A stretch of 54,256 nt of DNA from Patescibacteria group bacterium (GCA_018823885.1 JAHJHG010000007.1:1-54256), one strand, 5' to 3'. Numbered from the stretch's first letter, positions 9,519 to 37,819 are shown. Numbers and translations: made by a program. Notes: a model not told the origin generated them from the letters alone.

Positions 9519-10865
9519 TCAATAAAATTCCGTTTGTTCGCGTTTAAATATAGTGTTTCCTAAAACTAAACCAATATAATAAATCATCAATGGAAGAAAA
9601 AATATAGACATTCTTCTGGCAGAACCCGGTATTTTCTTCCATTCTACGTTAGTAATACTAAATGCATATGTACCCACAAACAATAGCAACAGATTTACAA
9701 TAATAATTAATAAAAGCACCAAATGCCCCTTTTTGTGTCGATTCTTGATGTCAATAAAGGCAGCGATTAAAAAGAAAAAAAACATTGGGCCCCACGTTAA
9801 AATGATGTTCTGATAAATATATCCTACGACTTCGATAACTCTGTTTAAACTAGCTCCGCTTAATAAAATCTTACTAGCCGAAGATATCTGTCCAGAAGTC
9901 GACATTGTATCTCCAAAAAAGCGACTTAGATGCACTTTCCAAGGCTGCTGAATAATTAAAAATCCTGGAAGATATGTCAATATTGGAAAGATGCTTTTCT
10001 TGTAAATCGAATAAAGCAAAACAACCACGATTCCAGTCAACCAAAATGGTTCTGTGGCCCTAGTCCAAGTACTTAGTCCAATCAGAAGGGAAGATAATAA
10101 TAGATAGTTGTTACTTTTATTAATCACTGCCAAATAAAGGTACAAAGTGCCAGTAACATAAAATACAGTATATGGAAGATTTGTGTAGGCTATTACCGAC
10201 TGCTCAAACAATGTGGGGGTACTTACTAAAACAAACGTGAAAAATATAGCAACGGATATATTTGTATGCCTTCTAAGCACACCATAAAAAATTAAACCAA
10301 AAGACAAATAAAATAGAAAATAGGTGAATTTAGGATTTGAACCTCCGGCCACATATACAATTGTATGAGTCAGGGATGTTAATAGCGGGTAATGAGCAAA
10401 GTAATCAAATTGCTTGGCTACTTGAACGAAATAACCAGTCTGGGCAATAATTTTTGCTCGAAAATCATATAAGGCCAATGCATCCCATACATATACTGGG
10501 TAATATGCATTTATCAATAAACTTATGAAAAATATAAGGCATATCCCAACGCAAATAATTTTTTCATACCTTTTGAGAAATTTAAACTCCTTTAACATGT
10601 TCGGAATTTTAATTTCAATTTTTCTTTTTAGGAAATGGCAAATATATCGAACAAGAACAATGAGTGTTAAAAGTAATATCACTATGCTTCCTAGTGTAAT
10701 TTTGACACCAATCCAGGAATAGAAAAACATCATTAGCGTTGTAAGGCCAAGCCCTAAAATATAGGATAAGCCCAATTTTTCCAAGAAAGGCAAGCCTTCT
10801 TTGATCAAGGATGAAAATATTAAACCGAAATATATAATTAGTATAAAAGTCAATAAGACGAACAT
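9519..10865 (-). CDS. Polytopic membrane protein, putative GT-C (module gene B, copy 2)
   Basis: WDALALYDFRAK, HYPLL, YTNLPY, TRATEPFW; paralog of 11904-13241. Confidence 0.7.
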   Translation of the reverse strand: MFVLLTFILIIYFGLIFSSLIKEGLPFLEKLGLSYILGLGLTTLMMFFYSWIGVKITLGSIVILLLTLIVLVRYICHFLKRKIEIKIPNMLKEFKFLKRYEKIICVGICLIFFISLLINAYYPVYVWDALALYDFRAKIIAQTGYFVQVAKQFDYFAHYPLLTSLTHTIVYVAGGSNPKFTYFLFYLSFGLIFYGVLRRHTNISVAIFFTFVLVSTPTLFEQSVIAYTNLPYTVFYVTGTLYLYLAVINKSNNYLLLSSLLIGLSTWTRATEPFWLTGIVVVLLYSIYKKSIFPILTYLPGFLIIQQPWKVHLSRFFGDTMSTSGQISSASKILLSGASLNRVIEVVGYIYQNIILTWGPMFFFFLIAAFIDIKNRHKKGHLVLLLIIIVNLLLLFVGTYAFSITNVEWKKIPGSARRMSIFFLPLMIYYIGLVLGNTIFKREQTEFY

Positions 10866-10867
10866 AG

Positions 10868-11878
10868 TTATTTTGTAATTTTAATAACTCCCCATAACTC
10901 TTTGTCTTTTACTGCTTCGTAAACATAATTTCCCATTACTTTATCTTTGTCTTTCTCATTTGTTATATAAATTATTTCTTCGGCGGCGACATCAAACTTG
11001 GGCCAACCATGAGTATAGTCGTATTCTGTCCCAATGGTCTCCCCCCAAGCTATTAACACATAATCTATGTCATTCTTTGTGTAATTAGCTCCAGGTAAAT
11101 ATTCTTCGCCATTCAACACTTTTCTTGGATAAAGAAAATAGCGTAAATATGCAGAATTCCCTGTTTGTGGCCAAGGATATCCTTGTGGGGGTATAAGTAT
11201 TGTAGATTCTTCAGGTACGTTTGTTTTTATAAAGCTTGTATATTCATAAAACAAAGGAGTCACCTTCTCGCTCATTTTTAAATCATAAGAAGCAAGGGGA
11301 TTACTCAACATAAAGGAAATATCTTTTTCAATCATCGAGCTTATTCCGATCAAATTATCAGCCGACACCATTAATGCCAATGTGATAATAATCATTTCCG
11401 GTCTAATTTTCTTAATTATATTTTTATTATTCACTATCGTATGAAATCCACGGCGGCTTAGGGCATAACTTATTAGTACAACAAAAAGTGGCCACTTAAG
11501 CTCTGCTGGATGAACATGTAATTTTGAAAAAACAAAGTTTGAATAGTTTAACTTCTCTAGATTCATCAGTGATAAATACAGTAGCCCAAATAAGAAAGCT
11601 AAGCTTAAATTTATCTTGTTCAATTTTTCACTCAAAACACTTTTTTTATACTTTGGATCATATTTTGAAAACAGGCAAGCTGCAATTAATATAAAATAAA
11701 CCCATAGAGGATTTATCAATAGATATTTCTTTGTCACACCTGGATACAACAATGCCTCTCCGATACTGACCAATAATGCAGATGCCCAAATTAGAGGAAA
11801 AATTGAGTAACACAAACTTCTCACTTGTTTTAACAAAACTAGCAGATTTGTTTTATTGTATTTCTGTATATTTTGCAT
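10868..11878 (-). CDS. Membrane protein with C-terminal soluble domain (module gene A, copy 2)
   Basis: N-terminal TM helices, then VPEESTILIPPQGYPWPQTGN..YLRYFLYPR; paralog of 13238-14197. Confidence 0.7.
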   Translation of the reverse strand: MQNIQKYNKTNLLVLLKQVRSLCYSIFPLIWASALLVSIGEALLYPGVTKKYLLINPLWVYFILIAACLFSKYDPKYKKSVLSEKLNKINLSLAFLFGLLYLSLMNLEKLNYSNFVFSKLHVHPAELKWPLFVVLISYALSRRGFHTIVNNKNIIKKIRPEMIIITLALMVSADNLIGISSMIEKDISFMLSNPLASYDLKMSEKVTPLFYEYTSFIKTNVPEESTILIPPQGYPWPQTGNSAYLRYFLYPRKVLNGEEYLPGANYTKNDIDYVLIAWGETIGTEYDYTHGWPKFDVAAEEIIYITNEKDKDKVMGNYVYEAVKDKELWGVIKITK

Positions 11879-11903
11879 GTTATTTGTTTATTAACCAAAA
11901 AAC

Positions 11904-13241
11904 TTAGGATCGGACAAACGCGCGCTTAATAATCTCTGAAAAACCAATCTTTCTTTTACCAAGGCCTGTTCTGGTTTCACCAAGGATAATCTTGACATTT
12001 TTAAGAAGCAAATAAGCACTAATAGGCAACAGATAGGTCGAAGATCTCATCAACGATTCCCCCATCTCTACCCACCAATCATACTCTAGAGAAATTAAAT
12101 ATAAACTACCCCAATAGAAAAGTATGCTAAATATTATTACCCATCCAGCGAATATGTCTGCCAACTTCTTTCTTCTGCCAATATTTATGAGGGAAACTAA
12201 ATAGACCAACAAAGTTAAACCCCATGATCGGATTAGGTATAAGGTAACTTTAAATAAGCCTCCTGTAAATATCCCCAAAATTCCCTCAATTATCGTTATG
12301 TGTGAGAAATCAAATATTTGAGGGTTGTCAGCAATGGAACCGACAAAGAATTGCCAAGAATAATATTGCAGAGCACAAAATACAAACAATACTACTATCG
12401 ACAAGGAAATGGTTTTATTTTTTCGCTTAACTAGTGCCGTGAGAAAAAAAGCTATGACTACAGCGATCCATATGGGCTCTAGAAACCTAATAAATTGAGA
12501 CGTTCCAATAAGAACCGTTCCAAAAAACAAAGACCACTTCTCTTTAGACTCAATAAAATGAAGGATTAAGAAAAAACCAAAAATTATATAAAGGGTAAAT
12601 GGCAAGTTCGTATACTCTATTATTGAAGTATAAAAAATATTGGTATTTGCAATCGATAAAAACATTAATAAAGCAGCAAAAAGCACGCCTAAACGTTCTT
12701 TTGTTAGTAAAAATATTCCTAAGCCAAGCAGAATCAGATTAAGTGAATAATAAAAACTTATTGGCGCAATTGAGACGTGTTCATGCCAAAAGCGATGGAC
12801 TATTGATGTGTATGGCGGATAAAGTAGATAGTAATATTGATTCTTGTCATCAAATTTAGAAAGGGATACCATCTCCGAGAAATTCATCCCCTGACTTAAA
12901 AATTTTGCACGAGCATCATAAAGAGCAATAGCATCCCATTCAATAGCACCTTTAGATAGATTCACATAGCTTGAAATAATAATTACTACTAACGAAATTG
13001 CAAATAGGAAAATAGTAATTTTTGCATCTCTCTTGCCTTTTTTATTTGGCACCACAATCCTCCGTTTTTTTTCAAACATGAAAAATATAATCCCACCCAT
13101 AAATAACAGTGAATATGAAATTATATCAATAGTCCCCACAACACTTGTTGCATATGCGGGCTCAAGCTTAAAAAAGTAAAGCTTTACCAAAAACATCAAA
13201 GAAATAAAAATAATGGCAATAGTAAATTTAGTAATCCTCAT
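11904..13241 (-). CDS. Polytopic membrane protein, putative GT-C (module gene B, copy 1)
   Basis: WDAIALYDARAK, LYPP, YTNLPF, IRFLEPIW. Confidence 0.7.
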   Translation of the reverse strand: MRITKFTIAIIFISLMFLVKLYFFKLEPAYATSVVGTIDIISYSLLFMGGIIFFMFEKKRRIVVPNKKGKRDAKITIFLFAISLVVIIISSYVNLSKGAIEWDAIALYDARAKFLSQGMNFSEMVSLSKFDDKNQYYYLLYPPYTSIVHRFWHEHVSIAPISFYYSLNLILLGLGIFLLTKERLGVLFAALLMFLSIANTNIFYTSIIEYTNLPFTLYIIFGFFLILHFIESKEKWSLFFGTVLIGTSQFIRFLEPIWIAVVIAFFLTALVKRKNKTISLSIVVLFVFCALQYYSWQFFVGSIADNPQIFDFSHITIIEGILGIFTGGLFKVTLYLIRSWGLTLLVYLVSLINIGRRKKLADIFAGWVIIFSILFYWGSLYLISLEYDWWVEMGESLMRSSTYLLPISAYLLLKNVKIILGETRTGLGKRKIGFSEIIKRAFVRS

Positions 13242-14197
13242 TTAAATATAATTTTGTATATTACTATATCGACTTTGTCAGAGATCGTCTCAAGTTCTTC
13301 ATATGTAACTTTATCTTCTTCATTAAAAATAATTGTTTTTTTTGCTCTATTAATCTCGGGCCAGGGCGGTTCTGTAACATATGGAAAATAGGCTTCACCA
13401 ATTTCTTCTACAAAAGCTTGATCATTAATAAGAGCACCACTAATTAAAATTCGCGGAAAAAGAAAATATCTTATAATCGGTTGGTTCCCCACTTCCGGCC
13501 ATTTTGAACCCTGAGGAGGATGAATAATTTTTGCATCCTCGGGAACAATATTCGATAAACTTTCTATATATACATAGCGCCACCCTATTTTGGTTTCATA
13601 ATCTCCTTTGGGAATCCGCAATAATGTTCGTATATTCGAAAAGGGATACAAAGATAGAAGTAACAAAATTACTATACCCAAAGTCGTTAAAACAATGTTT
13701 ATATCTGTTATCCATACACCAGCAATTCCCTTTTTTAAAGTTCTGCTAACCACTACAAATATCAACCCCGCAATTAATCCAAAAACAATGTAATTTGCGG
13801 TGCTTATAAATCTGAGGTCTTCCGGCCGCACACCATAAGTCGAGTACAGGTAATTCGGATAGTAATAAATATCAAAATCCAGAAGCCATCCTGCAATAAA
13901 ATTAACAATAGCCGAGGTTAAAGCTACGACAATTAGGGCTACCGTATGTTCCCGCGACACTTTTTCATCAATAAATCTTTTTATCCACGCCACTATAATG
14001 ACTAGAGAAAACAAAAGAAAAATCGGTTTATAAACTTTATAAGAAAAGGACAATAACAACGCCACAGGGTTATAGATACTAGAAACGTGGGTCATATAAT
14101 TATATTTAAGAACACCTACAAGGGGGTACAACAAAAACATCATCCATGGCACGATAAACGCGAAGGGATTGTAAATATAATTTTTTAATTTTTTCAT
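13238..14197 (-). CDS. Membrane protein with C-terminal soluble domain (module gene A, copy 1)
   Basis: TM helices, then VPEDAKIIHPPQGSKWPEVGN..IIRYFLFPR. Confidence 0.7.
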   Translation of the reverse strand: MKKLKNYIYNPFAFIVPWMMFLLYPLVGVLKYNYMTHVSSIYNPVALLLSFSYKVYKPIFLLFSLVIIVAWIKRFIDEKVSREHTVALIVVALTSAIVNFIAGWLLDFDIYYYPNYLYSTYGVRPEDLRFISTANYIVFGLIAGLIFVVVSRTLKKGIAGVWITDINIVLTTLGIVILLLLSLYPFSNIRTLLRIPKGDYETKIGWRYVYIESLSNIVPEDAKIIHPPQGSKWPEVGNQPIIRYFLFPRILISGALINDQAFVEEIGEAYFPYVTEPPWPEINRAKKTIIFNEEDKVTYEELETISDKVDIVIYKIIFK

Positions 14198-15804
14198 TCC
14201 AGTTGCCTAATTTCCCAGTAGTAGTTAAAGCTGTCTTCCTTTAGTGGTGGTTCAGAAAGTGTTTTGATGGGCCTTAGGGGAAATTTTTCTCTAAATACAA
14301 GAGGGTCAATTTGTTTAATTTCATAACTCTTACTTTTTATAATTTTGTAGTTTAATTTAATCAACTCCGGTTCTTCGATTGCCAATTCAAACGGTATTCG
14401 GGTAAAAAGATAGCCCGTATTGGGCAAATCACCTTTAAGCCTTTGAGTCCTTACGTCTTTGTTATATAAATATTTTAAGTGTAGTGGAATCTCATAAAGA
14501 ACTTCCCACGTGCCTAGACTGTCCGTCGCATTTATATATAATGTCTCGTTCTCAAGGGCTGAGATTGCCATTACCTGATCTGCCCCAAACTCCAAACATT
14601 GACTATACCAATTTTTATAGTTTATAGTTTTTGCAAGGTTTACGGGGAAACCAACGAAAAATAAATTCGTAAAGATAATTACCAATACTAAAGTGATTAT
14701 TATTTTATACATCGCGGTTTTCCCCCATCTGAAAATTGAAGCCATCAAGTAATCAGCAATTTTTGAAAATAGCACTCCAGTGATAATAGAAAAACAAAAA
14801 ATCGGAACTAAGATATATCTGTCGAGCACAAATCGCCAGGGCAACAATATCGCCGTACTTAGAAAAAAAGCTAGAACCCAGAATAAAAATTGTTCATTTA
14901 TTATCTCTTTTCTCAATTTTTTTGAAAAAAACACTACGGGAAACGTTAGTCCAACAAGTTTTAAAAAGGGTGAAGTCATGTTGCTAATATGTAGCGTGTA
15001 AGCCAAACCATTGCCAAAAAACCTTTCAAAATTAATCTGAAAATTTTCAGCGTAAGCCAGAGTCTCGTTTTGTGGCCTAGCTAGCAATTTCCCTGCAACT
15101 ACAAATAAAACAACAAAGATTGCCAATTTCACAGAAAGCTTCTTGTCACTTTCCTTTTTTATATATAAAAAGCTTATAAACAAAGGGGCAAACACAATAA
15201 CAAACGAGGGTTCTTTAACCGTAATTGCTGCTAGCAACATAAAGACTAAAAGAGAAGTAAAAGCCCGTGGATAAGACTTAATCCTTTTTACACCAGATCT
15301 AGACAAATATATCAGTGAAAAAAACCCAATGAGTAAAATCTGGTACGGCTCTTGAGGACCCAACCTTATTATGTTTTCAGAAAAAGAAAACGAGGAAACA
15401 AATATACCAGACGACAGAATAACCGATAAAGGACCGCCTCCTGCTTGAATAGCTGAAGCCATCAAAAGAAGCAAGAGTAGGTAGCCGACAATATATACCC
15501 TAAATTGATGGTGCAGGATGGGATTTATCCCTAACACTTTGTACAAAATATGTTGTATGCCCCAATATCCAGGCCTGAACCTACCGGATTGCTTTTCAAT
15601 TAAAATCTCCTTAAGGGGAGCACATTCACCGGAATTAAAACATTCATCAAACAAATATGAATTGTGGACAGATTGGCCATCATCTATAAGGGAAAAGTGT
15701 TTGTATGAATGCGGAGAAAGAACAAAAAATGCATAAAGAAAATAAAGCAAAGAAACTATAAATACAACTAACCAATACTTTCTAATTACTTCTTTAATTC
15801 TCAT
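14194..15804 (-). CDS. Putative GT-C membrane glycosyltransferase
   Basis: TM1 followed by LIDDG diacidic motif, GRFRP, QEP, VKEP, DRY; C-terminal soluble domain. Confidence 0.7.
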   Translation of the reverse strand: MRIKEVIRKYWLVVFIVSLLYFLYAFFVLSPHSYKHFSLIDDGQSVHNSYLFDECFNSGECAPLKEILIEKQSGRFRPGYWGIQHILYKVLGINPILHHQFRVYIVGYLLLLLLMASAIQAGGGPLSVILSSGIFVSSFSFSENIIRLGPQEPYQILLIGFFSLIYLSRSGVKRIKSYPRAFTSLLVFMLLAAITVKEPSFVIVFAPLFISFLYIKKESDKKLSVKLAIFVVLFVVAGKLLARPQNETLAYAENFQINFERFFGNGLAYTLHISNMTSPFLKLVGLTFPVVFFSKKLRKEIINEQFLFWVLAFFLSTAILLPWRFVLDRYILVPIFCFSIITGVLFSKIADYLMASIFRWGKTAMYKIIITLVLVIIFTNLFFVGFPVNLAKTINYKNWYSQCLEFGADQVMAISALENETLYINATDSLGTWEVLYEIPLHLKYLYNKDVRTQRLKGDLPNTGYLFTRIPFELAIEEPELIKLNYKIIKSKSYEIKQIDPLVFREKFPLRPIKTLSEPPLKEDSFNYYWEIRQLE

Positions 15805-16573: not shown

Positions 16574-17257
16574 TTATCTTTTTAATGCCGCATATAATTT
16601 TATTAGATCGGCAGGTGTTTGAAATATTCTATTTGAAAATCTCGGGGACCTTCTCTCAATAATCTCAACAGGAAGCTCTAAAATATCCAGGCCCGCCCTC
16701 TGTGATCGAATTACTAACTCCGAATCAAAAATTCCCGTTTCGGTTCTACATCTATTTATAATCGGTAGAAGGATGTTTCTTCTAAAAGCTTTAATCCCGT
16801 GAGTATCTGTTCCTTTAAATCCAAAGAAAATCTTTAAAAATAGATTAAAAAAGAATGTGATTAGTTTTCTGTTTAGAGACCTATTGTCCTTAGATGAAGA
16901 AAGTAACTTTGAACCCGTAACTAAATCGTATCCCAATAAGTCAGCGTTTATCAAATCAATAAATTTCTTATCCCAAAAATCAACATTAAATATTACAATA
17001 TATCGCCCCCTTGCTTTTTTAATTCCGCGGATTAGTGCTTTCCCATATGCAGGTTCGAGCAAGCATTCAACCTTAATTCTAAAATTTTTTCGAGCACATG
17101 CTTTTGCGATTTCTAATGTATTATCGCTACTTCCATTTTCAACAACTACAACTTCATAAGTTAATCTGGCTACGTCCAGATAGCTAGTAATATCTTTTAG
17201 AACTGTTGATAACAACCCCTCCTCGTCCTTTGCTGGTAAAATAACGCTTAATTTCAT
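16574..17257 (-). CDS. GT2, DPM1-like polyprenol-phosphate glycosyltransferase
   Basis: LSVILPAKDEE, VENGSSDNT, YGKAL..G, DLVTGSK, DTHGIKAFRR, FDSELVIR, ELPV. Confidence 0.8.
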   Translation of the reverse strand: MKLSVILPAKDEEGLLSTVLKDITSYLDVARLTYEVVVVENGSSDNTLEIAKACARKNFRIKVECLLEPAYGKALIRGIKKARGRYIVIFNVDFWDKKFIDLINADLLGYDLVTGSKLLSSSKDNRSLNRKLITFFFNLFLKIFFGFKGTDTHGIKAFRRNILLPIINRCRTETGIFDSELVIRSQRAGLDILELPVEIIERRSPRFSNRIFQTPADLIKLYAALKR

Positions 17258-17274
17258 ATTTTTAACGATAACAT

Positions 17275-17280
17275 ATTATA
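17275..17280 (-). promoter_or_regulatory. Putative -10 box (TATAAT) for the leftward genes
   Basis: Perfect TATAAT 17 nt upstream of ATG 17257 in the divergent intergenic region. Confidence 0.45.
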
Positions 17281-17361
17281 CTTAAACACTACGGCAATTA
17301 CTCGTCAAATTTGCTAATTATTATATAGTTGATACATGCGCTACTTGGCGATTATCAAAAT

Positions 17362-17370
17362 TGATATAAT
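17362..17370 (+). promoter_or_regulatory. Putative extended -10 promoter (TGaTATAAT) for the plus-strand gene
   Basis: TTGATATAAT ends 18 nt upstream of ATG 17389. Confidence 0.55.
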
Positions 17371-17388
17371 CTGAATATTTCTAAAGAG

Positions 17389-19035
17389 ATGAAAAATTCA
17401 CTCAACTTAGTTGAAAACAACTTAAGAAAAATAATTAAACTTTATTTTAACGGTTTGAGAAAGGCAGGAAAAGTTTGGGGTTCACACATAGAAACATTTC
17501 TAAAAAACTCATATATTCACCCCATTCTTTTCTCTGCTTATCCAATATTGTTTTTTTACTCTTACAACATTACGGAACTTTTTCCTAGGGTGCTCTTGTT
17601 CCCGATTACTGTTTCTGTCCTTATGACAGTATTCTTGTGGGGCCTATTATATTTCATTTTTAAAAATATTTACAAATCTGCCTTAATAACGTCGGTATTT
17701 ATTTTATTATTCTTTTCCTTTACTCACCTTTATCAACTATTTATAAATCGTTTTCAAATTGGGGTCACCACACACCACGCGCTTGTCTTTTGTCTCGCTC
17801 TTTTAATACTAGTGGCGGTACTTCTTAAAAGAACGAAAAATGAACCCAAGACACTTACTCAGTTATTTAATATCATTTCACTCGCTTTATTCATCTCTGC
17901 TTCAATCAACATTGTATCGTACGAAGTTGGAATCAGAAATCAATTAGAGTCGGAAAGTATCTCGCAGGGAGATGCAGTAACTCAAGGAAATCAGGAACCT
18001 GTCGAAAACAGAGATATATACTATATTATTCTTGATGCTTATGGACGACAAGATATTCTTAACAAAAGTTATAATTATGACAATACAACATTTATCCAAT
18101 ATCTAGAAAAAAGGGGCTTCTACGTTGCCTCAGAAAGTAACAGTAATTACGCCTATACACATCTATCTCTCCCTTCAACTTTCAATTTTAAATATCTAAA
18201 TTATTTAACTGATCAATTTGGAAAAGAAAGGCGGACGATGGATCCGGTACTTGCCAAAATGCTTCATGAAAATGAGGTAAGTCGGCTTCTAAAATCCCAT
18301 GGGTACCAATTTATAAACTTTGGCTCAGGCTGGTTAACAACTGAAAATATATCTACGGCCGATGTCAACATTCGTGAAGGAAAATTCTTTTCTCTCTTTG
18401 GAAAAACCCTCATTATAAATGATTTTTACTCTGTATTATTGAATACAACAGCCTTGTCTCCATTTGTTAAAGAAAAACTGTCCAATGCAGCAAGGGAAAA
18501 AATGTTATATAACTTTTCTGAACTTGCAGAGATGCCTTATTTGAGAGAAACAAAGTTTATTTTGGCTCATTTTCTACTCCCTCACCCCCCTTATCTTTTC
18601 GACAAAAATGGAGAACCAGTACCTGAGGATAAAGCAGGTGGGTATGATAAAAAACTGGACATTGAGCAATTACAGTTCACCAATAAAAAAATTATAGAAA
18701 CAGTTGACAAAATATTATCTAGATCCAATCCGAAACCTATTATAATTATTGCTTCGGATCACGGACCTCTCTTTCCAGGACTCGAAGATTGGCCAAAAAC
18801 GCCATCTGAGGAGGTGGTAAAAAAGCGAATGAGTATCTTCAATGCCTACTATTTCCCTGAAGGTGGAAGCGATTTATTATACGATTCGATTACTCCGGTG
18901 AATACTTTCAGAATATTATTCAACTATTATTTTGGAACCAAATACGAACTATTAGAGGACAAAAGTTACTTTTCGTGGGCTAATGCCTATTACGAATTTT
19001 ATGATGTAACCGACCAAATAAAAATCAACGAATAA
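17389..19035 (+). CDS. Membrane-anchored alkaline-phosphatase/sulfatase-superfamily enzyme (LtaS/EptA-like architecture)
   Basis: About 5 N-terminal TMs; DIYYIILDAY, SNYAYTHLSLPS, HFLLPHPPY, IIIASDHG metal-ligand motifs. Confidence 0.85.
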   Translation: MKNSLNLVENNLRKIIKLYFNGLRKAGKVWGSHIETFLKNSYIHPILFSAYPILFFYSYNITELFPRVLLFPITVSVLMTVFLWGLLYFIFKNIYKSALITSVFILLFFSFTHLYQLFINRFQIGVTTHHALVFCLALLILVAVLLKRTKNEPKTLTQLFNIISLALFISASINIVSYEVGIRNQLESESISQGDAVTQGNQEPVENRDIYYIILDAYGRQDILNKSYNYDNTTFIQYLEKRGFYVASESNSNYAYTHLSLPSTFNFKYLNYLTDQFGKERRTMDPVLAKMLHENEVSRLLKSHGYQFINFGSGWLTTENISTADVNIREGKFFSLFGKTLIINDFYSVLLNTTALSPFVKEKLSNAAREKMLYNFSELAEMPYLRETKFILAHFLLPHPPYLFDKNGEPVPEDKAGGYDKKLDIEQLQFTNKKIIETVDKILSRSNPKPIIIIASDHGPLFPGLEDWPKTPSEEVVKKRMSIFNAYYFPEGGSDLLYDSITPVNTFRILFNYYFGTKYELLEDKSYFSWANAYYEFYDVTDQIKINE

Positions 19036-19099
19036 TGCAAAAGGTCTTCTTTTCTTTATAGAAAACTTACATTATATTTATAATCGTAGCTAGGGTTTT

Positions 19100-20488
19100 T
19101 TATAAAGCTTTCATCAGATAGCAAGTGCGCAAGGATCCAGCAACGGGGGCTTTTTTGAGTATTTTAAATTTTTTTGAAAATGATTTTTCAAAATCTTTTT
19201 GGGTATAGTTATTAAAAATATCTTCACGAGTCATCAGGAGCTTTTTTACTTGAGAATCTTTTTTTGGCACAAACTCAATAATTAAGAATGTGCCAATTTT
19301 GTGACAAAAGTCCGCAATATTATTAAAGGGAAGATTATTAGAAATGGCCAGATGGTGGATAAGTGCTAAGGCCATCACGAGATCAACAGGACCCCGTTCA
19401 ATTAACGATTGACGCTCAGTATTTGCCCAACCAATTGCTGAGCTGGGATTGATAATGTCGATAATGAGAGGTAAAATATTTTTTTCTTGATTATTTTTAA
19501 CATGCAAATAGTTTTTTTCAACGGCAATAGGATCGAGATCTGCAGCAACAGTGAAAATTTTTTGCTGACTAGCAATACGACTAAACTCACCGGTGTTGGC
19601 GCCAATATCCCAAATTGTTTTTGGTTTAGCAATCTGTATATATTTTTCAACTAGTTTTTTCTTCTGCGTAAACGCCTTGTCTGAATAGTTAGTAAAAGTA
19701 TAGTATTCACCCCACTCTGTACTTTTCTTTCGATATAATAGTTTTGAAATAGTAGTTTTTAAGTTATCGACAATCCCCAGCAAAGCTACTTTGCTAAGTG
19801 AACGCGTCATTCGGTTTATACCCTGACTATTGGCAAACCGTTGCTGCTTATTGGCATGGAAATGAATATGCGAAGCAATAGAAAACGAAAGGCGTGTCCG
19901 TTTTGGGAGCAACTTACTGACTAAATCCAAGGGAATTCCGTCAAGGTGAATTCTCAATAATTGATTTAGTCGAATATCAACAAGGCTCATTAATAACAAC
20001 GGCCCCAGGAAGTGTTGACAAAATTGTTTGTATGCCACCCAAGGTTTACCTGCTTTGTACTGTTGGAATGATAGTAAATCAATTAAGATGGGTTTCCCAT
20101 CCAAAAATTGGATATTATAGCAACTAGCATCCTTAAGAGACATTCCATGTTGTAGGGCTATTTCCTGAATTCGGAGAGTTAACAAGGCTGCATCCTTAAG
20201 TTGACTGAAGGTCCATTCGTAGGGATACGAAACAAAAGGAATCATGTCAGTACTTAAAGTGGCATAGACACTTTGAGAAGTAGAATGATTTTTTGCTAAT
20301 CGAGTATGAGGAAGTAAATGGCATTGTTGCACCAAAGCTTTATATAACCCAGAATCAAATAAGAGATCAAAGTCCTTTTTATACGAACGGTTAACTTGAC
20401 GAAAAACTGTTTTACCGCGGTAATACACACATCCACTAGGGTCACGAAAAGAGCTGGGTTCGCACTTAATTTTTTGGCTCCTGATCAT
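19100..20488 (-). CDS. NoeA-like protein: kinase-like N-terminal domain plus class I SAM methyltransferase
   Basis: SFRDPSG, IPFVSYPYEW, LKDASCYNIQF..GKPILIDLLSF; C-terminal WDIGANTGEFS, AADLD, LALIHHL, LIIEFVP. Confidence 0.8.
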   Translation of the reverse strand: MIRSQKIKCEPSSFRDPSGCVYYRGKTVFRQVNRSYKKDFDLLFDSGLYKALVQQCHLLPHTRLAKNHSTSQSVYATLSTDMIPFVSYPYEWTFSQLKDAALLTLRIQEIALQHGMSLKDASCYNIQFLDGKPILIDLLSFQQYKAGKPWVAYKQFCQHFLGPLLLMSLVDIRLNQLLRIHLDGIPLDLVSKLLPKRTRLSFSIASHIHFHANKQQRFANSQGINRMTRSLSKVALLGIVDNLKTTISKLLYRKKSTEWGEYYTFTNYSDKAFTQKKKLVEKYIQIAKPKTIWDIGANTGEFSRIASQQKIFTVAADLDPIAVEKNYLHVKNNQEKNILPLIIDIINPSSAIGWANTERQSLIERGPVDLVMALALIHHLAISNNLPFNNIADFCHKIGTFLIIEFVPKKDSQVKKLLMTREDIFNNYTQKDFEKSFSKKFKILKKAPVAGSLRTCYLMKAL

Positions 20489-20687
20489 CTCTGTTCTTTC
20501 GTTGAAAAAGGGCGCTGAAGAAAGATATGAGTTGTCGTAAGTACCTTTTCCCTATATAAACTCCTCCTACCAAGAAGCCAATTGCTATTTGGGTAAGGTA
20601 ACTACCAGTACCTGGATCAAGATACGCTTCAATATTCGTTGGCAAAACTATTAAGTAAAAAGTTAGCAAGAAAATGACTTCAATCAC
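20466..20687 (-). CDS. Small membrane protein with YLDPGTGS motif
   Basis: 73 aa: signal-peptide-like N-terminus ending IEA, then YLDPGTGSYLTQ, a TM helix and a basic tail; GTG start with a candidate promoter; overlaps the next gene by 23 nt. Confidence 0.8.
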   Translation of the reverse strand: MIEVIFLLTFYLIVLPTNIEAYLDPGTGSYLTQIAIGFLVGGVYIGKRYLRQLISFFSALFQRKNRDDQEPKN

Positions 20688-20693
20688 GTAGAT

Positions 20694-20702
20694 AGTGTAT
20701 CA
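20694..20702 (-). promoter_or_regulatory. Putative extended -10 promoter (TGaTACACT), leaderless spacing
   Basis: Minus strand reads TT-TGA-TACACT-ATCTAC-GTG; 6 nt to the start at 20687. Confidence 0.5.
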
Positions 20703-20818
20703 AACTTTGTCTAAATATACATCTGCTTTATCCAGATAGACTGATCATATTAAACTACTATGCATTTGAGTTAATATACTCTTGTTAGCCAAAGAAAACG
20801 AGAATGGCTCATAAATTT

Positions 20819-21607
20819 TTACACTAACTTTGCAATTCGTACCGTCAATACCCTTCCCAAATTATGAAGCCTGTGTAAAAAAAGTAAAATCTGGTTGGCC
20901 GTATGCTTCTTGGCAATCTCTAAATCTCTTCTTAAAACACTCATATATTGTGTTGATGAAATGTTGCTTGCCATTAACCTAAAATCTGAAATGTGGTCGT
21001 TCAGAACTTTTGGCATCTCTGTCTTCCCCAACTTTAACCACAAATCATATTCCATTACCACCCCACCAATTCCACTAAATACTCCATTCTTTTCGTAAGC
21101 AGACCTGCTCACGAAAACCGAGGGCTGCATGAGGTAGTTCACAATAAGTAACAAGGGATAATAGTTAATTGTTAAAAGGATATTTTTGTAAAAAGTTACT
21201 ATTCGTGAAATTTCTTTACCTTCCGAATCAATTACCTTCCCTCTTCCTGCAATCCAAAAAGTTTCTGGATTCTCTTGAAAATATTTACCAACTATTAGTA
21301 ACGCCCCTCTTTTATAAACGTCATCTGCGTTAATATATGTAATTATTTCACCCGTTGCTTTTTCCAAACCTCTGTTAATTGCGTCTACTTGTCCTCTGTC
21401 TTTCTTTGAAATCCAATTAATTATTTTAGGATATTTCTTTGCAAACCCCTTAACAATTCCAACCGTTTCATCTGTAGAGGCTCCATCTTGAATAATTACT
21501 TCCAAGTTAGGATACCTCTGGGAAACAATTGATTCTAAGGTTTCTTGGATATATTCCCCCTTGTTATACGAAGGTATAACAATGGAGATTTTTGGAAGAG
21601 ATTTCAT
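20819..21607 (-). CDS. Glycosyltransferase family 2 (WcaE/WfgS-like)
   Basis: ISIVIPSYN, QDGASTDET, DRGQVDAINRG, YINADD, QPSVF, MEYDLWL. Confidence 0.9.
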   Translation of the reverse strand: MKSLPKISIVIPSYNKGEYIQETLESIVSQRYPNLEVIIQDGASTDETVGIVKGFAKKYPKIINWISKKDRGQVDAINRGLEKATGEIITYINADDVYKRGALLIVGKYFQENPETFWIAGRGKVIDSEGKEISRIVTFYKNILLTINYYPLLLIVNYLMQPSVFVSRSAYEKNGVFSGIGGVVMEYDLWLKLGKTEMPKVLNDHISDFRLMASNISSTQYMSVLRRDLEIAKKHTANQILLFLHRLHNLGRVLTVRIAKLV

Positions 21608-21948
21608 TTTTTACTTTTCTTTTCAACATCCTTCAGTGATTCTCGCCTTACATAATCTTCAAGTTTTTTTTCCATCCGTTTTGTGCTTACATAAGTTCTT
21701 GTGACCATCCCAATTACTAATACAAAACCGCCTACAATCATTAAGTCAAAAAGTCTTGTGATAAAGAAGGTTTTCGCAAAAGTTCGTAATATTTCTGGAA
21801 ATATTACGATAAATATCGTCACTGCCCATATGGTTACCCAAGAAATGATTTCTGTTCTATCAAGCTCCCCTCTTCTGCGATGTAAAATAGCAAAATAAAT
21901 CATCAAAAAGGCAAAAATAATAGCTATAATTTGTAATCCTAAGATCAT
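21604..21948 (-). CDS. DUF2304-family small membrane protein (GacJ/Rv3632-like)
   Basis: 114 aa, 3 TMs, W...W..IFPE...A....I.R..D pattern and helical tail; ATGA-coupled to a DPM1-like GT2. Confidence 0.8.
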   Translation of the reverse strand: MILGLQIIAIIFAFLMIYFAILHRRRGELDRTEIISWVTIWAVTIFIVIFPEILRTFAKTFFITRLFDLMIVGGFVLVIGMVTRTYVSTKRMEKKLEDYVRRESLKDVEKKSKK

Positions 21949-22604
21949 AGTCGTATTCTCCAGCGCAAAACATCAAAGAGGATGCTGATGGCATCCAAAA
22001 TGGTCACGCCTTTTACTTCATCATAGTATACGGTCTCAACTGGTGCCTCGCAATATTTTAGTCCTGACTTTGCCGTTCTTGCTGCCATTTCCGTTTCAAC
22101 TCCATATCCTTTTGATTCCCAATATATTTTCTCAAAACCTTTCTTGCTTAAACCTCTATAGCCACAAAGTAAATCTGATACATAAATCCCAAACAACAAT
22201 GACACCAACAACGAAGCAAATTTGTTCCCCATATATCTCACAAATGGAACGCCATGATTTAAATTCCTTGAACCAAAAATAACATCAAATTTATCTTTTT
22301 CTAATGCGTCTGTAAAATGAGGCAAATCCTTTACTTTATGTTGTCCATCGGAATCCATAAAAACAACAGCATCGGCTCCCATCCGAAAAGCTGCTTCTGC
22401 GCCTGTTTTCATGGCCGCCCCTTTTCCTAAATTTACTTTGTGGCGGAGTACTGTAATCTTGTATTTACTTGCAACATTAAAGGTCTCGTCTTTTGATCCA
22501 TCATCAACAACAATAATTGGAAAATTTGTTTTTATTACGTCCTTAATAACGTTTCCAATTCTTTCTTCTTCTTGATGTGCTGGAATAACAATAAATATAT
22601 TCAT
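21945..22604 (-). CDS. GT2, DPM1-like polyprenol-phosphate sugar synthase (GacI/PpgS-like)
   Basis: VVDDGSKDET, HKVNLGKGAA, MDSDGQH, IFGSR, SDLLCGYR, YGVETEM. Confidence 0.9.
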   Translation of the reverse strand: MNIFIVIPAHQEEERIGNVIKDVIKTNFPIIVVDDGSKDETFNVASKYKITVLRHKVNLGKGAAMKTGAEAAFRMGADAVVFMDSDGQHKVKDLPHFTDALEKDKFDVIFGSRNLNHGVPFVRYMGNKFASLLVSLLFGIYVSDLLCGYRGLSKKGFEKIYWESKGYGVETEMAARTAKSGLKYCEAPVETVYYDEVKGVTILDAISILFDVLRWRIRL

Positions 22605-23792: not shown

Positions 23793-25253
23793 TTAATAGT
23801 TTAATAAATCTCTTGCCTTAACTCTAATAATATCTTCCTCTGATTGACCAACTCCCTCTTGCAATAATTCGAACTTATCTTCAAAAAAGACCTGAAAGAA
23901 ATTGTTTTGTGATAGAACTACTTTTACTAACTCGCTTGGACTCCAAGGTAATTCTTCATCTTCATTTGTATCATAAAAATCAACAAACATCTTTTTTTCT
24001 CCTGCCTCATATTCATTGAAATATGTGTGTGCATTTTTAGCCACTTCAGCACCTTGGCTAATCCAGTGAGTCTCTTTCGTATGATGCAACGTATATATGG
24101 ACAAAATTACCCACACCGATACAAAAACTAGTTTAAAAATATCAGTTACATTCGCCTTCTCTACTAAATACGAAATAGCAAGCATTACACCGATAAGGGG
24201 TAGGGTTAAATAATAAGTAAACTTGTGGAGAGGAAGAAACAATACTGGTAATAAAGTCAAAACAAACCAAATCAAAGAAAATATTATTATCTGAAAATCC
24301 TTTTTCTTTAGTTTTTTCCTAACTTTTAATGCCAAATACAGAATGGATGTCATTATTCCCCCAAAGAATAGAAATATCGGTATTATTTCTTTGGACCAAA
24401 ATCTGAAAAGATTTGGATTAAATTTCAACCCAGGTCCCATAAAATCCACAAGCATCTCAGGCAAGTTAAATGACCAGAGCCCATACCAGAAAAGCGTATT
24501 AACAAATCTTGGCGAAAAATCCCAAATGTAACTCTCTCCCTGGGCCAAACCGTAAAGGAAGAAATGGAAATACAGATAAATTAAAAGAATAATTACAAAA
24601 CCAGACAATGCCAATATAAATTTCCTAACCGGAATCACCCTATCTTTTCTTAGTTTCAAATAACCATAAACTAAAATCAATATACCTGGAATTACTATTG
24701 CAGTTTCCTTTGAAAGTAGTGCTAAAATATAAGTAATAACGGACAGGAAGTAATATTTCAAATCTCCTTTCCTGGCAAATTTAATAAAAAGCATAACCGC
24801 CAGTAAACAAAAAACAGCCAGTCCTAATTCTTGATAAGTTGCCAGATAATAAAGATGTCCATAATGAGTTGCGGAAGTCGCGTACAAAAACGCGGCGAAT
24901 AAGGCTATTGAATCATTTTTTGTTATCATGTTTACCAATTTATAAACAAGGTATATAACCAAAAAGAAAGTAATGAATGAGATTACATGAAGAGCAAAAG
25001 GATTAAGATTAAAAACTGAATTGCTCAAAAAATAGAATGCCTGAGTGGTTAATGGACGATACACACCTAGCCCTTCTGGTCCTTGAGTGAAATTGAAAAA
25101 ATTATAAAATTCTGCCAAAGAATTTGCCTTTGATATTTTTAAAAGAAAAAAATCATCATGGGTATAAAAAGTAAAAAGCGAAGGGAAATATATGATAAAG
25201 GAAATGAGAAAAACGAAAAGAAGTTTTGTGTTTAAGAACAATTTTCGTATCAT
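23793..25253 (-). CDS. Putative GT-C membrane glycosyltransferase
   Basis: FYTHDDF, YRPL, LLSKETAI; polytopic. Confidence 0.75.
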   Translation of the reverse strand: MIRKLFLNTKLLFVFLISFIIYFPSLFTFYTHDDFFLLKISKANSLAEFYNFFNFTQGPEGLGVYRPLTTQAFYFLSNSVFNLNPFALHVISFITFFLVIYLVYKLVNMITKNDSIALFAAFLYATSATHYGHLYYLATYQELGLAVFCLLAVMLFIKFARKGDLKYYFLSVITYILALLSKETAIVIPGILILVYGYLKLRKDRVIPVRKFILALSGFVIILLIYLYFHFFLYGLAQGESYIWDFSPRFVNTLFWYGLWSFNLPEMLVDFMGPGLKFNPNLFRFWSKEIIPIFLFFGGIMTSILYLALKVRKKLKKKDFQIIIFSLIWFVLTLLPVLFLPLHKFTYYLTLPLIGVMLAISYLVEKANVTDIFKLVFVSVWVILSIYTLHHTKETHWISQGAEVAKNAHTYFNEYEAGEKKMFVDFYDTNEDEELPWSPSELVKVVLSQNNFFQVFFEDKFELLQEGVGQSEEDIIRVKARDLLNY

Positions 25254-27178: not shown

Positions 27179-28831
27179 TTAATTAGCCACAATTTCAAAT
27201 GCAGGCTCTCCATTCGGAGAGTATATCGTTTTGACTATATTTGCGTGCTCTGGTATCTCGTCATCCGTTCCTATAATTAAACTTCTCGGACTATTTGGTG
27301 CTTCTTGGTCGTAGTCTATTGGTCTGAAGTAATATTTGTCAAAATTATCAACTGTCGAAAACCCATATTTGTCCCTCCCAGATAAAACATGATTCTCCTG
27401 AAACTGTGCTGGAGGATACTTCAAGTAAAAAAGCAGCAACATATATGGCTGATCATACCTAGTTGTAATTATCACCTCATCATATTTGCTTTCCTCTTCT
27501 TTTATATACGCTGTAAGTTCTTTTAGTCCATATTGAGACGAATATGGATATTCTTTGGCCATGTGGACCCAATACATATGTAGATATCTTGCAAACTGCC
27601 AGGAAATAATCAAAAAGAATAATACAAAAATTGAATTAAGTAATGCTTTTTTATGGACAATCTTGCGCAACCATTTCGAAAGAGATATCAATCCATAAGC
27701 CGATATGACCACCAAAGGAATTACCATACTCTGGGCTCGAAGCGCATGAGGTGATTGAAAAGTTAGGGCCGCCGCAAAAGGAGCAATAACAAGCCAAAGT
27801 ATAATTGGCGACCAACCTTTCGGTTTCTTAGCAATAAAAACCAAACCAGCCACAACAAACAAAATATCAAAAAGATACATCAATCCTGTTTCGGGCACCC
27901 TATTTCTTTGAATCTCATCACTGGACAAAAATAAAAACTCTCCCCAAAAGTGCCTTGCCCAGTTATCGGCAAACGCTAGGCTATAATTTACCGCTTTATT
28001 GTGAAGTATCCTTGTCGGTAGTGATTGAAAATCAGCATGTTCACCCCTAAGTTCATTTATTCTGGCAAGCGGCCCCGGATCAGCGAAAAGGCCTACTCCT
28101 GCCACCCTAGATGTAACCGCAGGTCCGGCGAAATCTATCATTAGCGGCGTAAGCACAACTAAACCGATAATTCCGGCGATTACGGCTCCCTTAATATTCC
28201 CAATTATTTTCTTTCTATATATTATTGCCAACCCAATGACAAGAAGTGGGACAACAATACGTGCTGCGTGGTATGTGTAAAGAGAAAAAACAAAAAACAA
28301 TGAAGAAAGAATCAGCAGTTTTGGTTTTTTAAAAGATCTTATAAATAACCAAACACCAATAGTCATAAAAAAGGTAGCCGCGTTTACTTCCCACCCGCCG
28401 CGGGAAAAATGAATGTGCCAGGAAGAAATAGCTAGAAAAAAACTCGATACTAGAGCCAGTGTATCGTCTTTAAACAGCTCTTTAACCAACAAATATAGTA
28501 TCAATACTGTGGCCACCCCCAGAAGTGCCCCAGGGATTCTTACTGCCCACTCTGTTAGTCCCAAGAGTTTAACAAATGGCAAAACGAGATAGAAATAACC
28601 TCCTGGCTTAAAATCATTGAAAGATTGAAAATGGACTGGCCAGGGATTGCTATGTTCGTCCAATCCAGTTTCGATTAGGGAATAGGCGTTATATGCAATG
28701 GCGGCCTCATCGGCATTCAGAGCTGGATAATCGGCCAAACGATAAAACCTTAAGAGAAATGCCAAGGCAATAATTGATATCAAGACTATCTTCTTGTACT
28801 TATATATATTTATCTTTTTAAATCTTTTCAT
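27179..28831 (-). CDS. ArnT/PMT-like GT-C, array copy
   Basis: NADEAAIAYNAYSL, FNDFKPG, WHIHFSR, ILHNK, PHALRA, SQYGLKE. Confidence 0.85.
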   Translation of the reverse strand: MKRFKKINIYKYKKIVLISIIALAFLLRFYRLADYPALNADEAAIAYNAYSLIETGLDEHSNPWPVHFQSFNDFKPGGYFYLVLPFVKLLGLTEWAVRIPGALLGVATVLILYLLVKELFKDDTLALVSSFFLAISSWHIHFSRGGWEVNAATFFMTIGVWLFIRSFKKPKLLILSSLFFVFSLYTYHAARIVVPLLVIGLAIIYRKKIIGNIKGAVIAGIIGLVVLTPLMIDFAGPAVTSRVAGVGLFADPGPLARINELRGEHADFQSLPTRILHNKAVNYSLAFADNWARHFWGEFLFLSSDEIQRNRVPETGLMYLFDILFVVAGLVFIAKKPKGWSPIILWLVIAPFAAALTFQSPHALRAQSMVIPLVVISAYGLISLSKWLRKIVHKKALLNSIFVLFFLIISWQFARYLHMYWVHMAKEYPYSSQYGLKELTAYIKEEESKYDEVIITTRYDQPYMLLLFYLKYPPAQFQENHVLSGRDKYGFSTVDNFDKYYFRPIDYDQEAPNSPRSLIIGTDDEIPEHANIVKTIYSPNGEPAFEIVAN

Positions 28832-30477
28832 AATGGCTCTATTATTCTAAAAGCCGGGTTAGTATTCAAATAGTTAATTTCCTTAATTAATTTAAACTGC
28901 TCCGGATCACTGGAATCTTCAACCGGAATCCTTATTGTGTCGGCAACAAATAAACTTCCTTTTTCACCCCGATTAACTGACCAGTCAATCGGCGCAAAAT
29001 ATATATTATCTAATCTTTCTACTTGCCCCACATCTCCTACCGCACTTTCTTTGAGTTTTGCTTGAGCCTGATACTTTGCTGGACTGTATTTTTGATAAAA
29101 CAGGAAATAAATATATGGTTGAGCATAGGATTGCTGCACCTTAATAGTTTCATAATTAGATTGAATAGGAGTAACTGTTCCTACAATTTGTTTGTAACCA
29201 TACTCCCAACATTTTGAATCATGTTTTGACAGATGGACAAAATATGCGTCTAGATAATAAACATAATTGAGCAAATATATTACCGCCAATCCTCCCAAAA
29301 TAATTTTTTTGTGTTTCACAATTTTGTTAAATAGAAAAAGTAATCCAAACGAAGACATTAGCACCAAGGGAATTACCATGTTGTAACTTCTTACTGCATG
29401 TACCTGATCTCTAGATAAAGCGGCAGGAAGAGGAGCAAGCAACAACCATAGAAAGATAAATATCGATTCTTTTGACCTGGAACGAACCAGAACAATAAAC
29501 CCAGAAATAATCAAAAGCAAATCTGTGAATATAAACATGCCTGTATAGGGAGCCGAATGTCTTGGATTTTGCCAATCGCCCTCAAAGAATAAGAATCTAC
29601 CAGTAAAGTGATTAAACCATCGACCCAAAACTCCCCTTGTAAAATTTACTCCTTCGGAATGAAACAAGTAATAGCTTAAGCCCCCTATTTTTTCCTCACC
29701 CTGATCAAGAAACTGTTGAATATAATCAGTGGGCCTTGGATATGAGAAAACACTGAAAACCTCAAGTCTTCCTGTTTTGCCTTGGAAAAAACCAAGCAAT
29801 ATTGGAAGTGATACCAACAATCCTATTAAAAAAGCAGTTGCTAGCGTTTTCTTCTCGAATTTAATCACGTCTTTAAAATATATTATTCCCAAAACAACCA
29901 ACACTATTGCCGTTGAAAGCTTCGCCCCCTGATATGTAATAAGTGTTAGAGCAAAGAAAAAGGCCGAATAAAATAAATGTTTTTGTTTTTCAATTGCTTT
30001 TACAAAAAAGTAGATACCAAGAAGGGTGAGGGTTAGAGAAACATTAATTTCCCATGCGCCCCTAGAAAAGTGGATATGCCAGGGATTAATTGCAAGCAAA
30101 AAACTTGAGACAAGGGCTATTTTTTTGTCTTTAAAAAACTGCAAACCAATCATATACATCAAAAATACAGCCAATATTCCAAATGCAGCACTAGGCAGTC
30201 TTACAGCAAATTCTGTCAGTCCTAAAACAGCCACAGCGGGTACGGTCAAATAGACATAAAGACCGGGCTTAAAATCACCAAAGGATTTAAAGATAATCGG
30301 CATAATCTTTCCGTATTCATCTTTACCCGTTTTTAAAATAGAGTAGGCGTTATAACCCAAAGAAGCCTCATCGGGTGCAAGATGAGGAGGAGTACTCCCC
30401 AAATTCCACAATCTCAACACCGACGCCAAAAGCAAAATAACAAAAATTATGTTCTTCTTATTTAATAGTTTTTTCAT
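28828..30477 (-). CDS. ArnT/PMT-like GT-C, array copy
   Basis: APDEASLGYNAYSILKTGKDEYG, FGDFKPG, WHIHFSR, VHAVRS, WEYGYKQ; likely start ATG 30477. Confidence 0.85.
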   Translation of the reverse strand: MKKLLNKKNIIFVILLLASVLRLWNLGSTPPHLAPDEASLGYNAYSILKTGKDEYGKIMPIIFKSFGDFKPGLYVYLTVPAVAVLGLTEFAVRLPSAAFGILAVFLMYMIGLQFFKDKKIALVSSFLLAINPWHIHFSRGAWEINVSLTLTLLGIYFFVKAIEKQKHLFYSAFFFALTLITYQGAKLSTAIVLVVLGIIYFKDVIKFEKKTLATAFLIGLLVSLPILLGFFQGKTGRLEVFSVFSYPRPTDYIQQFLDQGEEKIGGLSYYLFHSEGVNFTRGVLGRWFNHFTGRFLFFEGDWQNPRHSAPYTGMFIFTDLLLIISGFIVLVRSRSKESIFIFLWLLLAPLPAALSRDQVHAVRSYNMVIPLVLMSSFGLLFLFNKIVKHKKIILGGLAVIYLLNYVYYLDAYFVHLSKHDSKCWEYGYKQIVGTVTPIQSNYETIKVQQSYAQPYIYFLFYQKYSPAKYQAQAKLKESAVGDVGQVERLDNIYFAPIDWSVNRGEKGSLFVADTIRIPVEDSSDPEQFKLIKEINYLNTNPAFRIIEPL

Positions 30478-37813: not shown

Positions 37814-37819
37814 ATTATA
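37814..37819 (-). promoter_or_regulatory. Putative -10 box (TATAAT) overlapping the upstream stop codon, 7 nt before the first gene of the GT-C array
   Basis: Minus strand reads AAGC-TATAAT-CAAGAGA-ATG(37806). Confidence 0.45.

Follow-up and report, generated by a model that had tools for sequence, protein, structure and literature searches.

A NoeA-family protein with a predicted kinase-like domain ahead of a class I methyltransferase in a surface-glycan island of a Patescibacteria group bacterium

The stretch of DNA analyzed in this study (hereafter, the window) was the whole 54,256-base contig JAHJHG010000007.1 of a Patescibacteria group bacterium (GCA_018823885.1), whose 756,347-base, 9-contig genome is estimated to be 98% complete; a genome of this size would suit a member of the candidate phyla radiation. 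We focused on the gene at 19100..20488 on the minus strand, for which an original prediction had proposed a hidden protein-kinase-like domain in the N-terminal half of a NoeA-like methyltransferase. Translation yielded one intact open reading frame (ORF) with an ATG start and zero internal stops, in which the coordinates of the motifs were verified (Table 1), and the gene was single-copy in the host genome. BLASTP against NoeA of the Sinorhizobium meliloti plasmid pSymA aligned the two proteins end to end (query residues 1-460, 33% identity, 158/473, E 8e-82); the NoeA-like label was therefore borne out, as were the intact reading frame and the named motifs. The protein is predicted to be soluble, with no hydrophobic 19-mer at threshold and no transmembrane (TM)-like segment. 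Its full-length AlphaFold2 (AF2) model, built from the family alignment A1 described below, reached a predicted local distance difference test (pLDDT) score of 96.1 and a predicted template modeling (pTM) score of 0.95, and the protein thus represents a small, soluble, confidently modeled assay target. The public gene call for this protein (P0002) begins at V21, so that the conserved SFRDPSG loop is missing from it. We consider it very probable that the protein belongs to the NoeA family and joins a kinase-like domain (residues 1-250) to a class I methyltransferase (residues 265-462).

Table 1. Coordinates of the NoeA-like gene, its predicted domains and motifs, and the two neighboring genes (positions are those of the window)
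Feature	Residues	Position	Strand	Remarks
NoeA-family gene	1-462	19100..20488	-	462 aa; atypical kinase-like domain and class I S-adenosylmethionine (SAM) methyltransferase
Kinase-like domain	1-250	19739..20488	-	
SFRDPSG	13-19	20432..20452	-	Gly-rich-loop position, loop before strand 19-24
R30	30	20399..20401	-	On strand 27-33; proposed counterpart of ATP-binding Lys (K72 of protein kinase A, PKA)
DASCYN, catalytic-loop-like	120-125	20114..20131	-	D120...N125, between strands 116-118 and 126-129
D137 in ILIDLLSF	137	20078..20080	-	DFG metal-binding Asp position, directly after strand 132-135
Class I SAM methyltransferase domain	about 265-462	19103..19696	-	
SAM-binding motif I, DIGANTG	294-300	19589..19609	-	
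H378-H379	378-379	19352..19357	-	Aligned with WbdD H132-H133
Small YLDPGTGS membrane protein		20466..20687	-	Unannotated, 73 aa, GTG start; overlaps the NoeA-like start by 23 nt
NoeB-like membrane enzyme, alkaline-phosphatase/sulfatase superfamily		17389..19035	+	548 aa, N-terminal TM region, convergent

The resemblance of the N-terminal half to kinases lies at the level of fold only, and the domain is hidden to HMMER-level methods. Pfam returned no match to the first 250 residues at E up to 10, NCBIfam returned weak methyltransferase matches alone and no kinase family at E up to 10, and searches of PDB sequences with either the single sequence or the family profile gave no kinase match. Membership in canonical Pkinase or APH/choline-kinase-type family profiles was likewise not found. 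With the full-length model, the listed Foldseek matches comprised WbdD entries and methyltransferases only, and the N-terminal domain was then folded alone. The resulting model of residues 1-252 (pLDDT 95.2, pTM 0.92) was searched against the PDB with Foldseek, and each of the 47 listed rows was either a protein kinase or the pseudokinase domain of RNase L (E 1.9e-5 to 1.6e-4; template modeling scores by query 0.33-0.47). Over three structure comparisons, all listed rows (47, 50, and 50) were kinase domains, spanning residues 3-252. The WbdD kinase domain, APH, choline kinase, and other small-molecule kinases were absent from the top rows, which alone were shown in these searches. In the ESM Atlas, residues 1-252 retrieved same-family clusters only, in which the aligned part carried no Pfam family; one of these, a cluster of 57 members, represented a stand-alone 245-residue form. 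The look-up provided no lead to a function.

The order of elements in the model argued for the same fold. A kinase core runs alphaE-beta6-loop-beta7-beta8-DFG. The modeled domain presents a helix (94-113), a strand (116-118), D120 and N125 in D-x4-N spacing, two strands (126-129 and 132-135), and D137, an order that would fit that of a kinase core. Upstream, R30 lies on the strand that follows strand 19-24 and precedes a helix (34-45) in the alpha-C position. These models support the assignment of the N-terminal half as a protein-kinase-like fold, in agreement with what had been proposed from motifs.

The D-x4-N...D pattern alone is common; therefore, its conservation was the real test of the motifs. 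Alignment A1 contained the query (P0001) and 110 of the 150 listed representatives at 50% identity, which were 38-52% identical to the query; the other 40 had been set aside on visual inspection because their length was unusual or their matches were partial or split. The stretch HGMSLKDASCYNIQF (residues 114-128), which had been singled out for its catalytic-loop spacing, carries D120 and N125, conserved in 110 of 111 sequences (one has E) and in 111 of 111, respectively, and the adjoining K119 was conserved in 102. PILIDLLS (residues 133-140), read in the original prediction as DFG-like, contains D137, which was invariant (111/111) and occupies the position of the DFG Asp. SFRDPSG, suggested as a possible Gly loop, falls in the Gly-rich-loop position, and its S13 (110/111), D16 (110/111), and G19 (106/111) were conserved. 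R30 was found in every sequence (111/111). The same R, D, N, and D also occur at the aligned positions of S. meliloti NoeA. All three motif assignments therefore held up, and a lack of D/N/D conservation in the family, which would have spoken against them, was ruled out. Secondary-structure order and the available sections of a published family analysis (PMC9758233), which is discussed below, are the basis for equating R30, D120, N125, and D137 with PKA residues.

The C-terminal half was a class I methyltransferase, as had been stated: the fold was clear by Foldseek and motif I was conserved, despite Pfam matches below threshold. These sub-threshold matches were all to methyltransferases (residues 277-418), among them Methyltransf_23 (E 0.0011), which scored 19.2 bits where the cut-off is 27. 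With the full-length model, the top three Foldseek rows were WbdD entries (E 1.7e-7 to 4.1e-7), the first of these E-values belonging to a match that covers 234 columns, and the rest of the listed matches were class I methyltransferases; matches with E no higher than 0.001 numbered at least 500. Within motif I, D294 was conserved in 110, G296 in 109, and G300 in 108 of the 111 sequences. When the family profile was searched against PDB sequences, four WbdD sequences came first (E 0.002-0.0029; best stretch 0.069-0.093), with profile positions 284-405 aligned to WbdD residues 53-164. This alignment sets the motif 'ihHL' of the family against 'FHHI' of WbdD, and the two His residues concerned, H378 (109/111) and H379 (111/111), were strongly conserved. 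According to the available sections of a structural study of WbdD (Hagelueken et al. 2012; PMC3482155), H132 and H133 form a phosphate-binding pair beside the SAM methyl group, and the variants H132A, H133A, R203A, and Y16F kept phosphorylation and lost methylation; R203 and Y16 fall outside the profile-aligned stretch. The same source notes that NodS and RebM carry two His or two Tyr at that site, and the His pair is therefore suggestive, not diagnostic. By fold and profile comparison, the closest solved relative of the modeled C-terminal half is the phosphate-methylating domain of WbdD.

In rhizobia, the NoeA family carries a host-range phenotype. The family is large: a word-indexed search gave at least 8000 candidates, all at E 0.001 or below, and an exhaustive search of representatives at 50% identity gave 6059 within an E-value of 0.001, of which 4266 stayed within 1e-10 and 1812 within 1e-30. 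Of the 150 representatives listed, almost all were 440-490 residues long and matched end to end. Names given in the source records included 'SAM-dependent methyltransferase', 'ribosomal protein L11 methylase PrmA', and 'Nodulation protein NoeA-related protein'. On plasmids, tblastn found 65 records, 57 of them from Sinorhizobium, and in species-representative genomes the family occurred in at least 600 places, with loci from many bacterial phyla and one archaeal metagenome-assembled genome.

The hidden kinase-like domain of this family has already been predicted in print. Krysinska et al. (Sci Rep 2022; PMC9758233) described the Lani_1194 family, of which NoeA is a homologue, as having a kinase-like domain of a novel type with a class I methyltransferase behind it. 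The sections of that paper available to us identify R38 of Lani_1194 as the likely counterpart of PKA K72, report the equivalents of D166, N171, and D184 as conserved within atypical motifs, and mention one region that is remotely Gly-rich-loop-like; in those sections, the ion-pair Glu is given as not identifiable. About two thousand homologues of the kinase domain were considered there, 94% of which also carry the methyltransferase, and homologues of the two flanking genes were reported in 65% and 38% of 816 neighborhoods. The legend and text of a domain-arrangement figure place the family beside WbdD. The window protein showed all of these traits, namely NoeA homology, a kinase-like fold, Arg in place of Lys with the D/N/D set, a C-terminal methyltransferase, and both neighbors. 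It is a member of the published family and adds no new concept; the idea that it would newly suggest a function for NoeA did not stand, as the same prediction, with its WbdD comparison figure, is in PMC9758233. Our literature search, whose coverage left subscription journals largely outside, found no experimental follow-up of the Lani_1194/NoeA kinase-methyltransferase.

Directly upstream of the NoeA-like gene, in an apparent gap of 330 bp, we found the ORF of the small membrane protein, which is missing from the public gene calls. The annotated order on pSymA is nodL, a 71-aa hypothetical ORF, noeA, and noeB, and the 73-aa ORF matched the 71-aa one by BLASTP (E 4e-9), with the motif AYLDPGTGS shared and an identical 23-nt overlap. 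In a sample of 80 loci, kept from the at least 600 in species-representative genomes, a hidden Markov model detected a homologue in 76: 62 were short ORFs that immediately precede the NoeA-like gene on its strand, 5 were short ORFs elsewhere, and 9 lay inside longer 'longest-start' ORFs, 8 of these ending at the NoeA start. Three of the 4 loci without a match have the NoeA gene at a contig edge, with no upstream DNA. An alignment of 64 of the small proteins showed a layout of motif, membrane helix, basic stretch, and acidic tail, in which Y22, S29, and Q33 were invariant and D24, P25, G26, and G28 nearly so; many copies carry a signal-peptide-like segment that ends in A-x-A just before the motif. 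We take this protein to belong, probably, to the Lani_1193 family, homologues of which were reported in 65% of the 816 neighborhoods (PMC9758233) against the 76/80 loci found here; the higher frequency in our sample probably reflects that short genes are often uncalled. The small membrane protein of this module is thus one that annotation usually misses. A complex prediction for the NoeA-like protein (A1) with the small protein (alignment A4) scored 0.59 against 0.01 for the best control and was graded 'weak support', with runs agreeing in at least 77% of contacts and a partner pLDDT of at least 67; the prediction gave no interface. In calibration, 116 of 157 solved complexes passed the mark, as did 2 of 215 mismatched pairs, and scores of 0.60 or below comprised only 18 of the 157 solved complexes, plus both passing mismatches; the score is counted as evidence neither way.

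The convergent neighbor was related to NoeB, an identity that needed profile comparison because direct BLASTP against NoeB gave short matches only (best E 8e-4). By hhalign, the NoeB-like family matched S. meliloti NoeB with a probability of 95.3% (E 2.3e-8) over 88 columns that include HxxxPHxP and DHG. PF00884 (Sulfatase) was matched by S. meliloti NoeB (E 2e-10) and by 32 of 41 sampled members of the NoeB-like family; the window copy itself matched no Pfam family at E 0.01 or below. Residues D209, H394, H399, D457, and H458 were invariant in the family, and TM-like segments lie within residues 61-180. The public gene call for this protein (P0273) begins at V142, and the conserved TM region is consequently missing. 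Public calls for the host genome therefore truncate both enzymes at the N terminus and omit the small ORF.

Across the 80 loci, a NoeB-like gene was nearby in 38, directly downstream in 29 and directly upstream in 4, a count that is a lower bound, since many loci are short. No conserved neighbor beyond the trio was found in this sample. The next cluster was a GT2 glycosyltransferase in 12 loci, followed by a GDP-mannose-type nucleotidyltransferase (8), Capsule_synth (7), a cytidylyltransferase (7), and NeuB (5), together with the housekeeping genes topA (7) and rimM (5). Fused forms were rare: of four such proteins of at least 810 residues, three were joined to a NoeB-like part, a radical-SAM/B12 part, and an RmlD/epimerase-type part, respectively, and one was unannotated; four fusions are too few to generalize, and single gene calls may be artifacts. 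One of them, P0392 (983 aa), consists of a NoeA-like part and a complete NoeB-like part with 31% identity to the window neighbor (E 2e-72), and could represent either a genuine fusion or an artifact of gene calling. Another, P0393 (1150 aa), combines a NoeA-like part with Pfam radical SAM (PF04055) and B12-binding (PF02310) domains, a composition that possibly links the NoeA-like part to radical methylation chemistry.

The whole three-gene module lies in a 54-kb surface-glycan island, the window, in which nearly all genes are on the minus strand and no tRNA genes were found. The genes matched by Pfam were mainly of the following kinds: GT2, GT4, and GT-C (PMT_2) glycosyltransferases; several methyltransferases; a GNAT acetyltransferase and a DegT aminotransferase; a Wzx-type flippase; and DUF2079, DUF2304, and YfhO proteins. 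Scans of 17000-21200 gave 23 promoter-like sites (15.2 +/- 3.7 expected) and 4 terminator-like sites (2.5 +/- 1.7 expected), none of them convincingly placed. Elsewhere in the window, a series of GT-C (PMT_2/PMT) membrane glycosyltransferases, paralogs of one another with lengths of about 550-575 residues, occupies 27179-37806 (minus strand), four in tandem at 27179-33776 and two at 34389-37806, with another at 41518-43251 (minus strand) and further PMT_2-type genes at 9519-10865 and 23793-25253. At 21604-22604 (minus strand), the gene directly after a GT2 (219 aa) encodes a DUF2304 membrane protein (114 aa), and a second GT2 comes next; the GT2 and DUF2304 pair may represent a polyprenol-phosphate-sugar synthase and its small membrane partner. 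Large ORFs (336-572 aa) that match no Pfam family (E 0.001 or 1e-5) lie within 10868-15804, 4145-5818, and 37815-39083 (minus strand), and likewise at 44065-45339 and 50594-52312 (minus strand).

The finding that the complete module is kept in a reduced 0.76-Mb genome, within a glycan island, speaks for a basic role in the envelope and against one specific to symbiosis. In the reading that we prefer, to which we assign a probability of about 0.6, the kinase-like domain is an active phosphotransferase. R30, in place of the usual Lys, together with D120, N125, and D137 would form its active-site set, and the domain would use ATP to phosphorylate a hydroxyl group on an envelope glycan or glycolipid precursor, on the inner side of the membrane. 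The enzyme, having no TM segment, is presumably cytoplasmic, and the small YLDPGTGS protein may hold it at the membrane. The methyltransferase half would then methylate the added phosphate or a neighboring group, as WbdD does; this order, phosphorylation and then methylation, is one that we infer by analogy. A WbdD-type methyl-phosphate product, suggested by the same analogy, is possible but less likely than not. The NoeB-like enzyme would act on the outer face, where its relatives work, either later or using the NoeA-like product. Two features weigh against phosphotransfer, namely that the usual ATP-binding Lys is Arg and that no conserved alpha-C Glu was identified in the kinase-like domain, and they therefore leave room for a non-canonical or pseudokinase role. 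In a broader scheme, to which we attach a low probability, the trio would constitute a two-compartment decoration pathway of a so far undescribed kind, in which the cytoplasmic enzyme, tethered by the small protein, builds a lipid-carrier head group of the methyl-phosphate or another phospho-methylated type and the outward-facing NoeB-like enzyme of the EptA/LtaS type transfers it to envelope glycans. If that scheme were true, host range in rhizobia would be set by the acceptor, a surface or signal molecule.

Some atypical kinase-fold enzymes perform other chemistry, and it is conceivable, though on balance unlikely, that the domain has a kinase fold without phosphoryl transfer, serving the methyltransferase as a pseudokinase that binds nucleotide or substrate, or acting in other ATP chemistry such as AMPylation or ligation. 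Such a role would suit the Arg present in all 111 sequences, the top structural neighbors, which include the pseudokinases RNase L, IRAK3, NFR5, VRK3, and PAN3, and the alpha-C Glu, identified neither here nor in the available sections of PMC9758233. However, pseudokinases often lose the catalytic-base and metal-ligand residues, whereas here D120 (110/111) and the metal ligands N125 and D137 (111/111 each) are under strong selection across phyla.

EptA/LtaS-type enzymes draw phospho-head groups from lipid donors, and the NoeA-like enzyme might have a membrane lipid, not the glycan, as its substrate. Phosphorylation of a lipid alcohol, with methylation of its phosphate or head group, would yield a dedicated phosphodiester lipid donor, with which the NoeB-like enzyme would decorate envelope polymers outside the membrane. 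We regard this as rather improbable. The NoeB-like gene near the NoeA-like one in 38/80 loci and once fused to it, the nearly universal small membrane partner, and the lack of any conserved neighbor beyond the trio, which fits a self-contained module, all speak for it; nevertheless, the proposal is purely inferential, a lipid of this kind is not known, a NoeB-like gene is lacking from the vicinity in about half of the loci, and the NoeA-like protein has no membrane segment of its own.

Considerably less probable is that the kinase-like domain acts as a protein kinase on the small membrane protein encoded with it, through the motif Y-L/I-D-P-G-S/T-G-S. The motif offers an invariant Ser with Ser/Thr nearby (Y22, S29, and Q33 being invariant among the 64 small proteins), the gene pairing is near-universal with overlapping reading frames, and all listed structural neighbors were protein kinases, not small-molecule kinases. 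However, the positive-inside rule, applied to the alignment, puts the motif, which precedes the helix and lies opposite the basic stretch, probably outside the cell and beyond the reach of a cytoplasmic enzyme, the A-x-A segment before the motif in many copies points the same way, and the methyltransferase would be left without a role. Finally, that the N-terminal half is an unrelated substrate-binding domain with coincidental motifs is very improbable, as every listed row in the three comparisons was a kinase domain over residues 3-252, D120, N125, and D137 fall exactly at the catalytic-loop and DFG positions in secondary-structure order, and sequence-profile methods agree, with OspG kinase the top FFAS match in the PDB for a Legionella anisa member (Z -9.59; PMC9758233 supplement).

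Among known systems, WbdD of E. coli O9a (PDB 4AZS, 4AZW, 4UW0; PMC3482155) likewise unites a kinase fold and a class I methyltransferase in one polypeptide. Its order is methyltransferase, kinase, and coiled coil, whereas the window protein begins with the kinase-like domain and ends at residue 462 with the methyltransferase sheet, without a C-terminal coiled coil; the reversed domain order had been correctly anticipated. The kinase half of the window protein has Arg for Lys, and the WbdD kinase was not among its listed fold neighbors. In Pfam scans of the 45 window ORFs of at least 100 residues, to which this search was confined, no ABC transporter (Wzm/Wzt) was found, and a Wzx-type Polysacc_synt flippase was. 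The analogy to WbdD is therefore only partly upheld. For the methyltransferase half it appears reasonable, as WbdD is the top solved relative and H378/H379 align with the H132/H133 pair needed for phosphate methylation. The window protein as a whole is outside the WbdD family, given its reversed order, the missing coiled coil, and the lack of an ABC transporter among the window ORFs scanned.

The NoeB-like protein shares with EptA/LtaS/YejM-type enzymes an N-terminal membrane region followed by a PF00884-type domain, although, unlike them, the window copy reaches no Pfam family at the threshold given above; HHpred placed a NoeB homologue of Legionella anisa on EptA (E 3.2e-27; PMC9758233 supplement). 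The Lcin_0519 family, described in available sections of the same paper, is also a bacterial fusion of a kinase-like domain and a methyltransferase with a predicted envelope role; judged by that description, the window protein is set apart from it by the helix 34-45 in the alpha-C position and by other neighbors. The closest counterparts are S. meliloti NoeA and Lani_1194. The S. meliloti locus differs in several respects, in that the window belongs to an uncultured host with a small genome (0.76 Mb) and offers a glycan island as the setting where S. meliloti has a nod operon, the NoeB-like and NoeA-like genes converge whereas S. meliloti noeB lies downstream on the same strand, and, unlike in S. 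meliloti, a nodL-type acetyltransferase is not adjacent. Nevertheless, the S. meliloti noeA gene and the window gene both have a start that lies within a 23-nt overlap with an ORF of about 70 residues, as well as a partner of the NoeB type, and the window protein is alike to NoeA and Lani_1194 in length, in architecture, in its Arg-for-Lys substitution, and in the D/N/D set.

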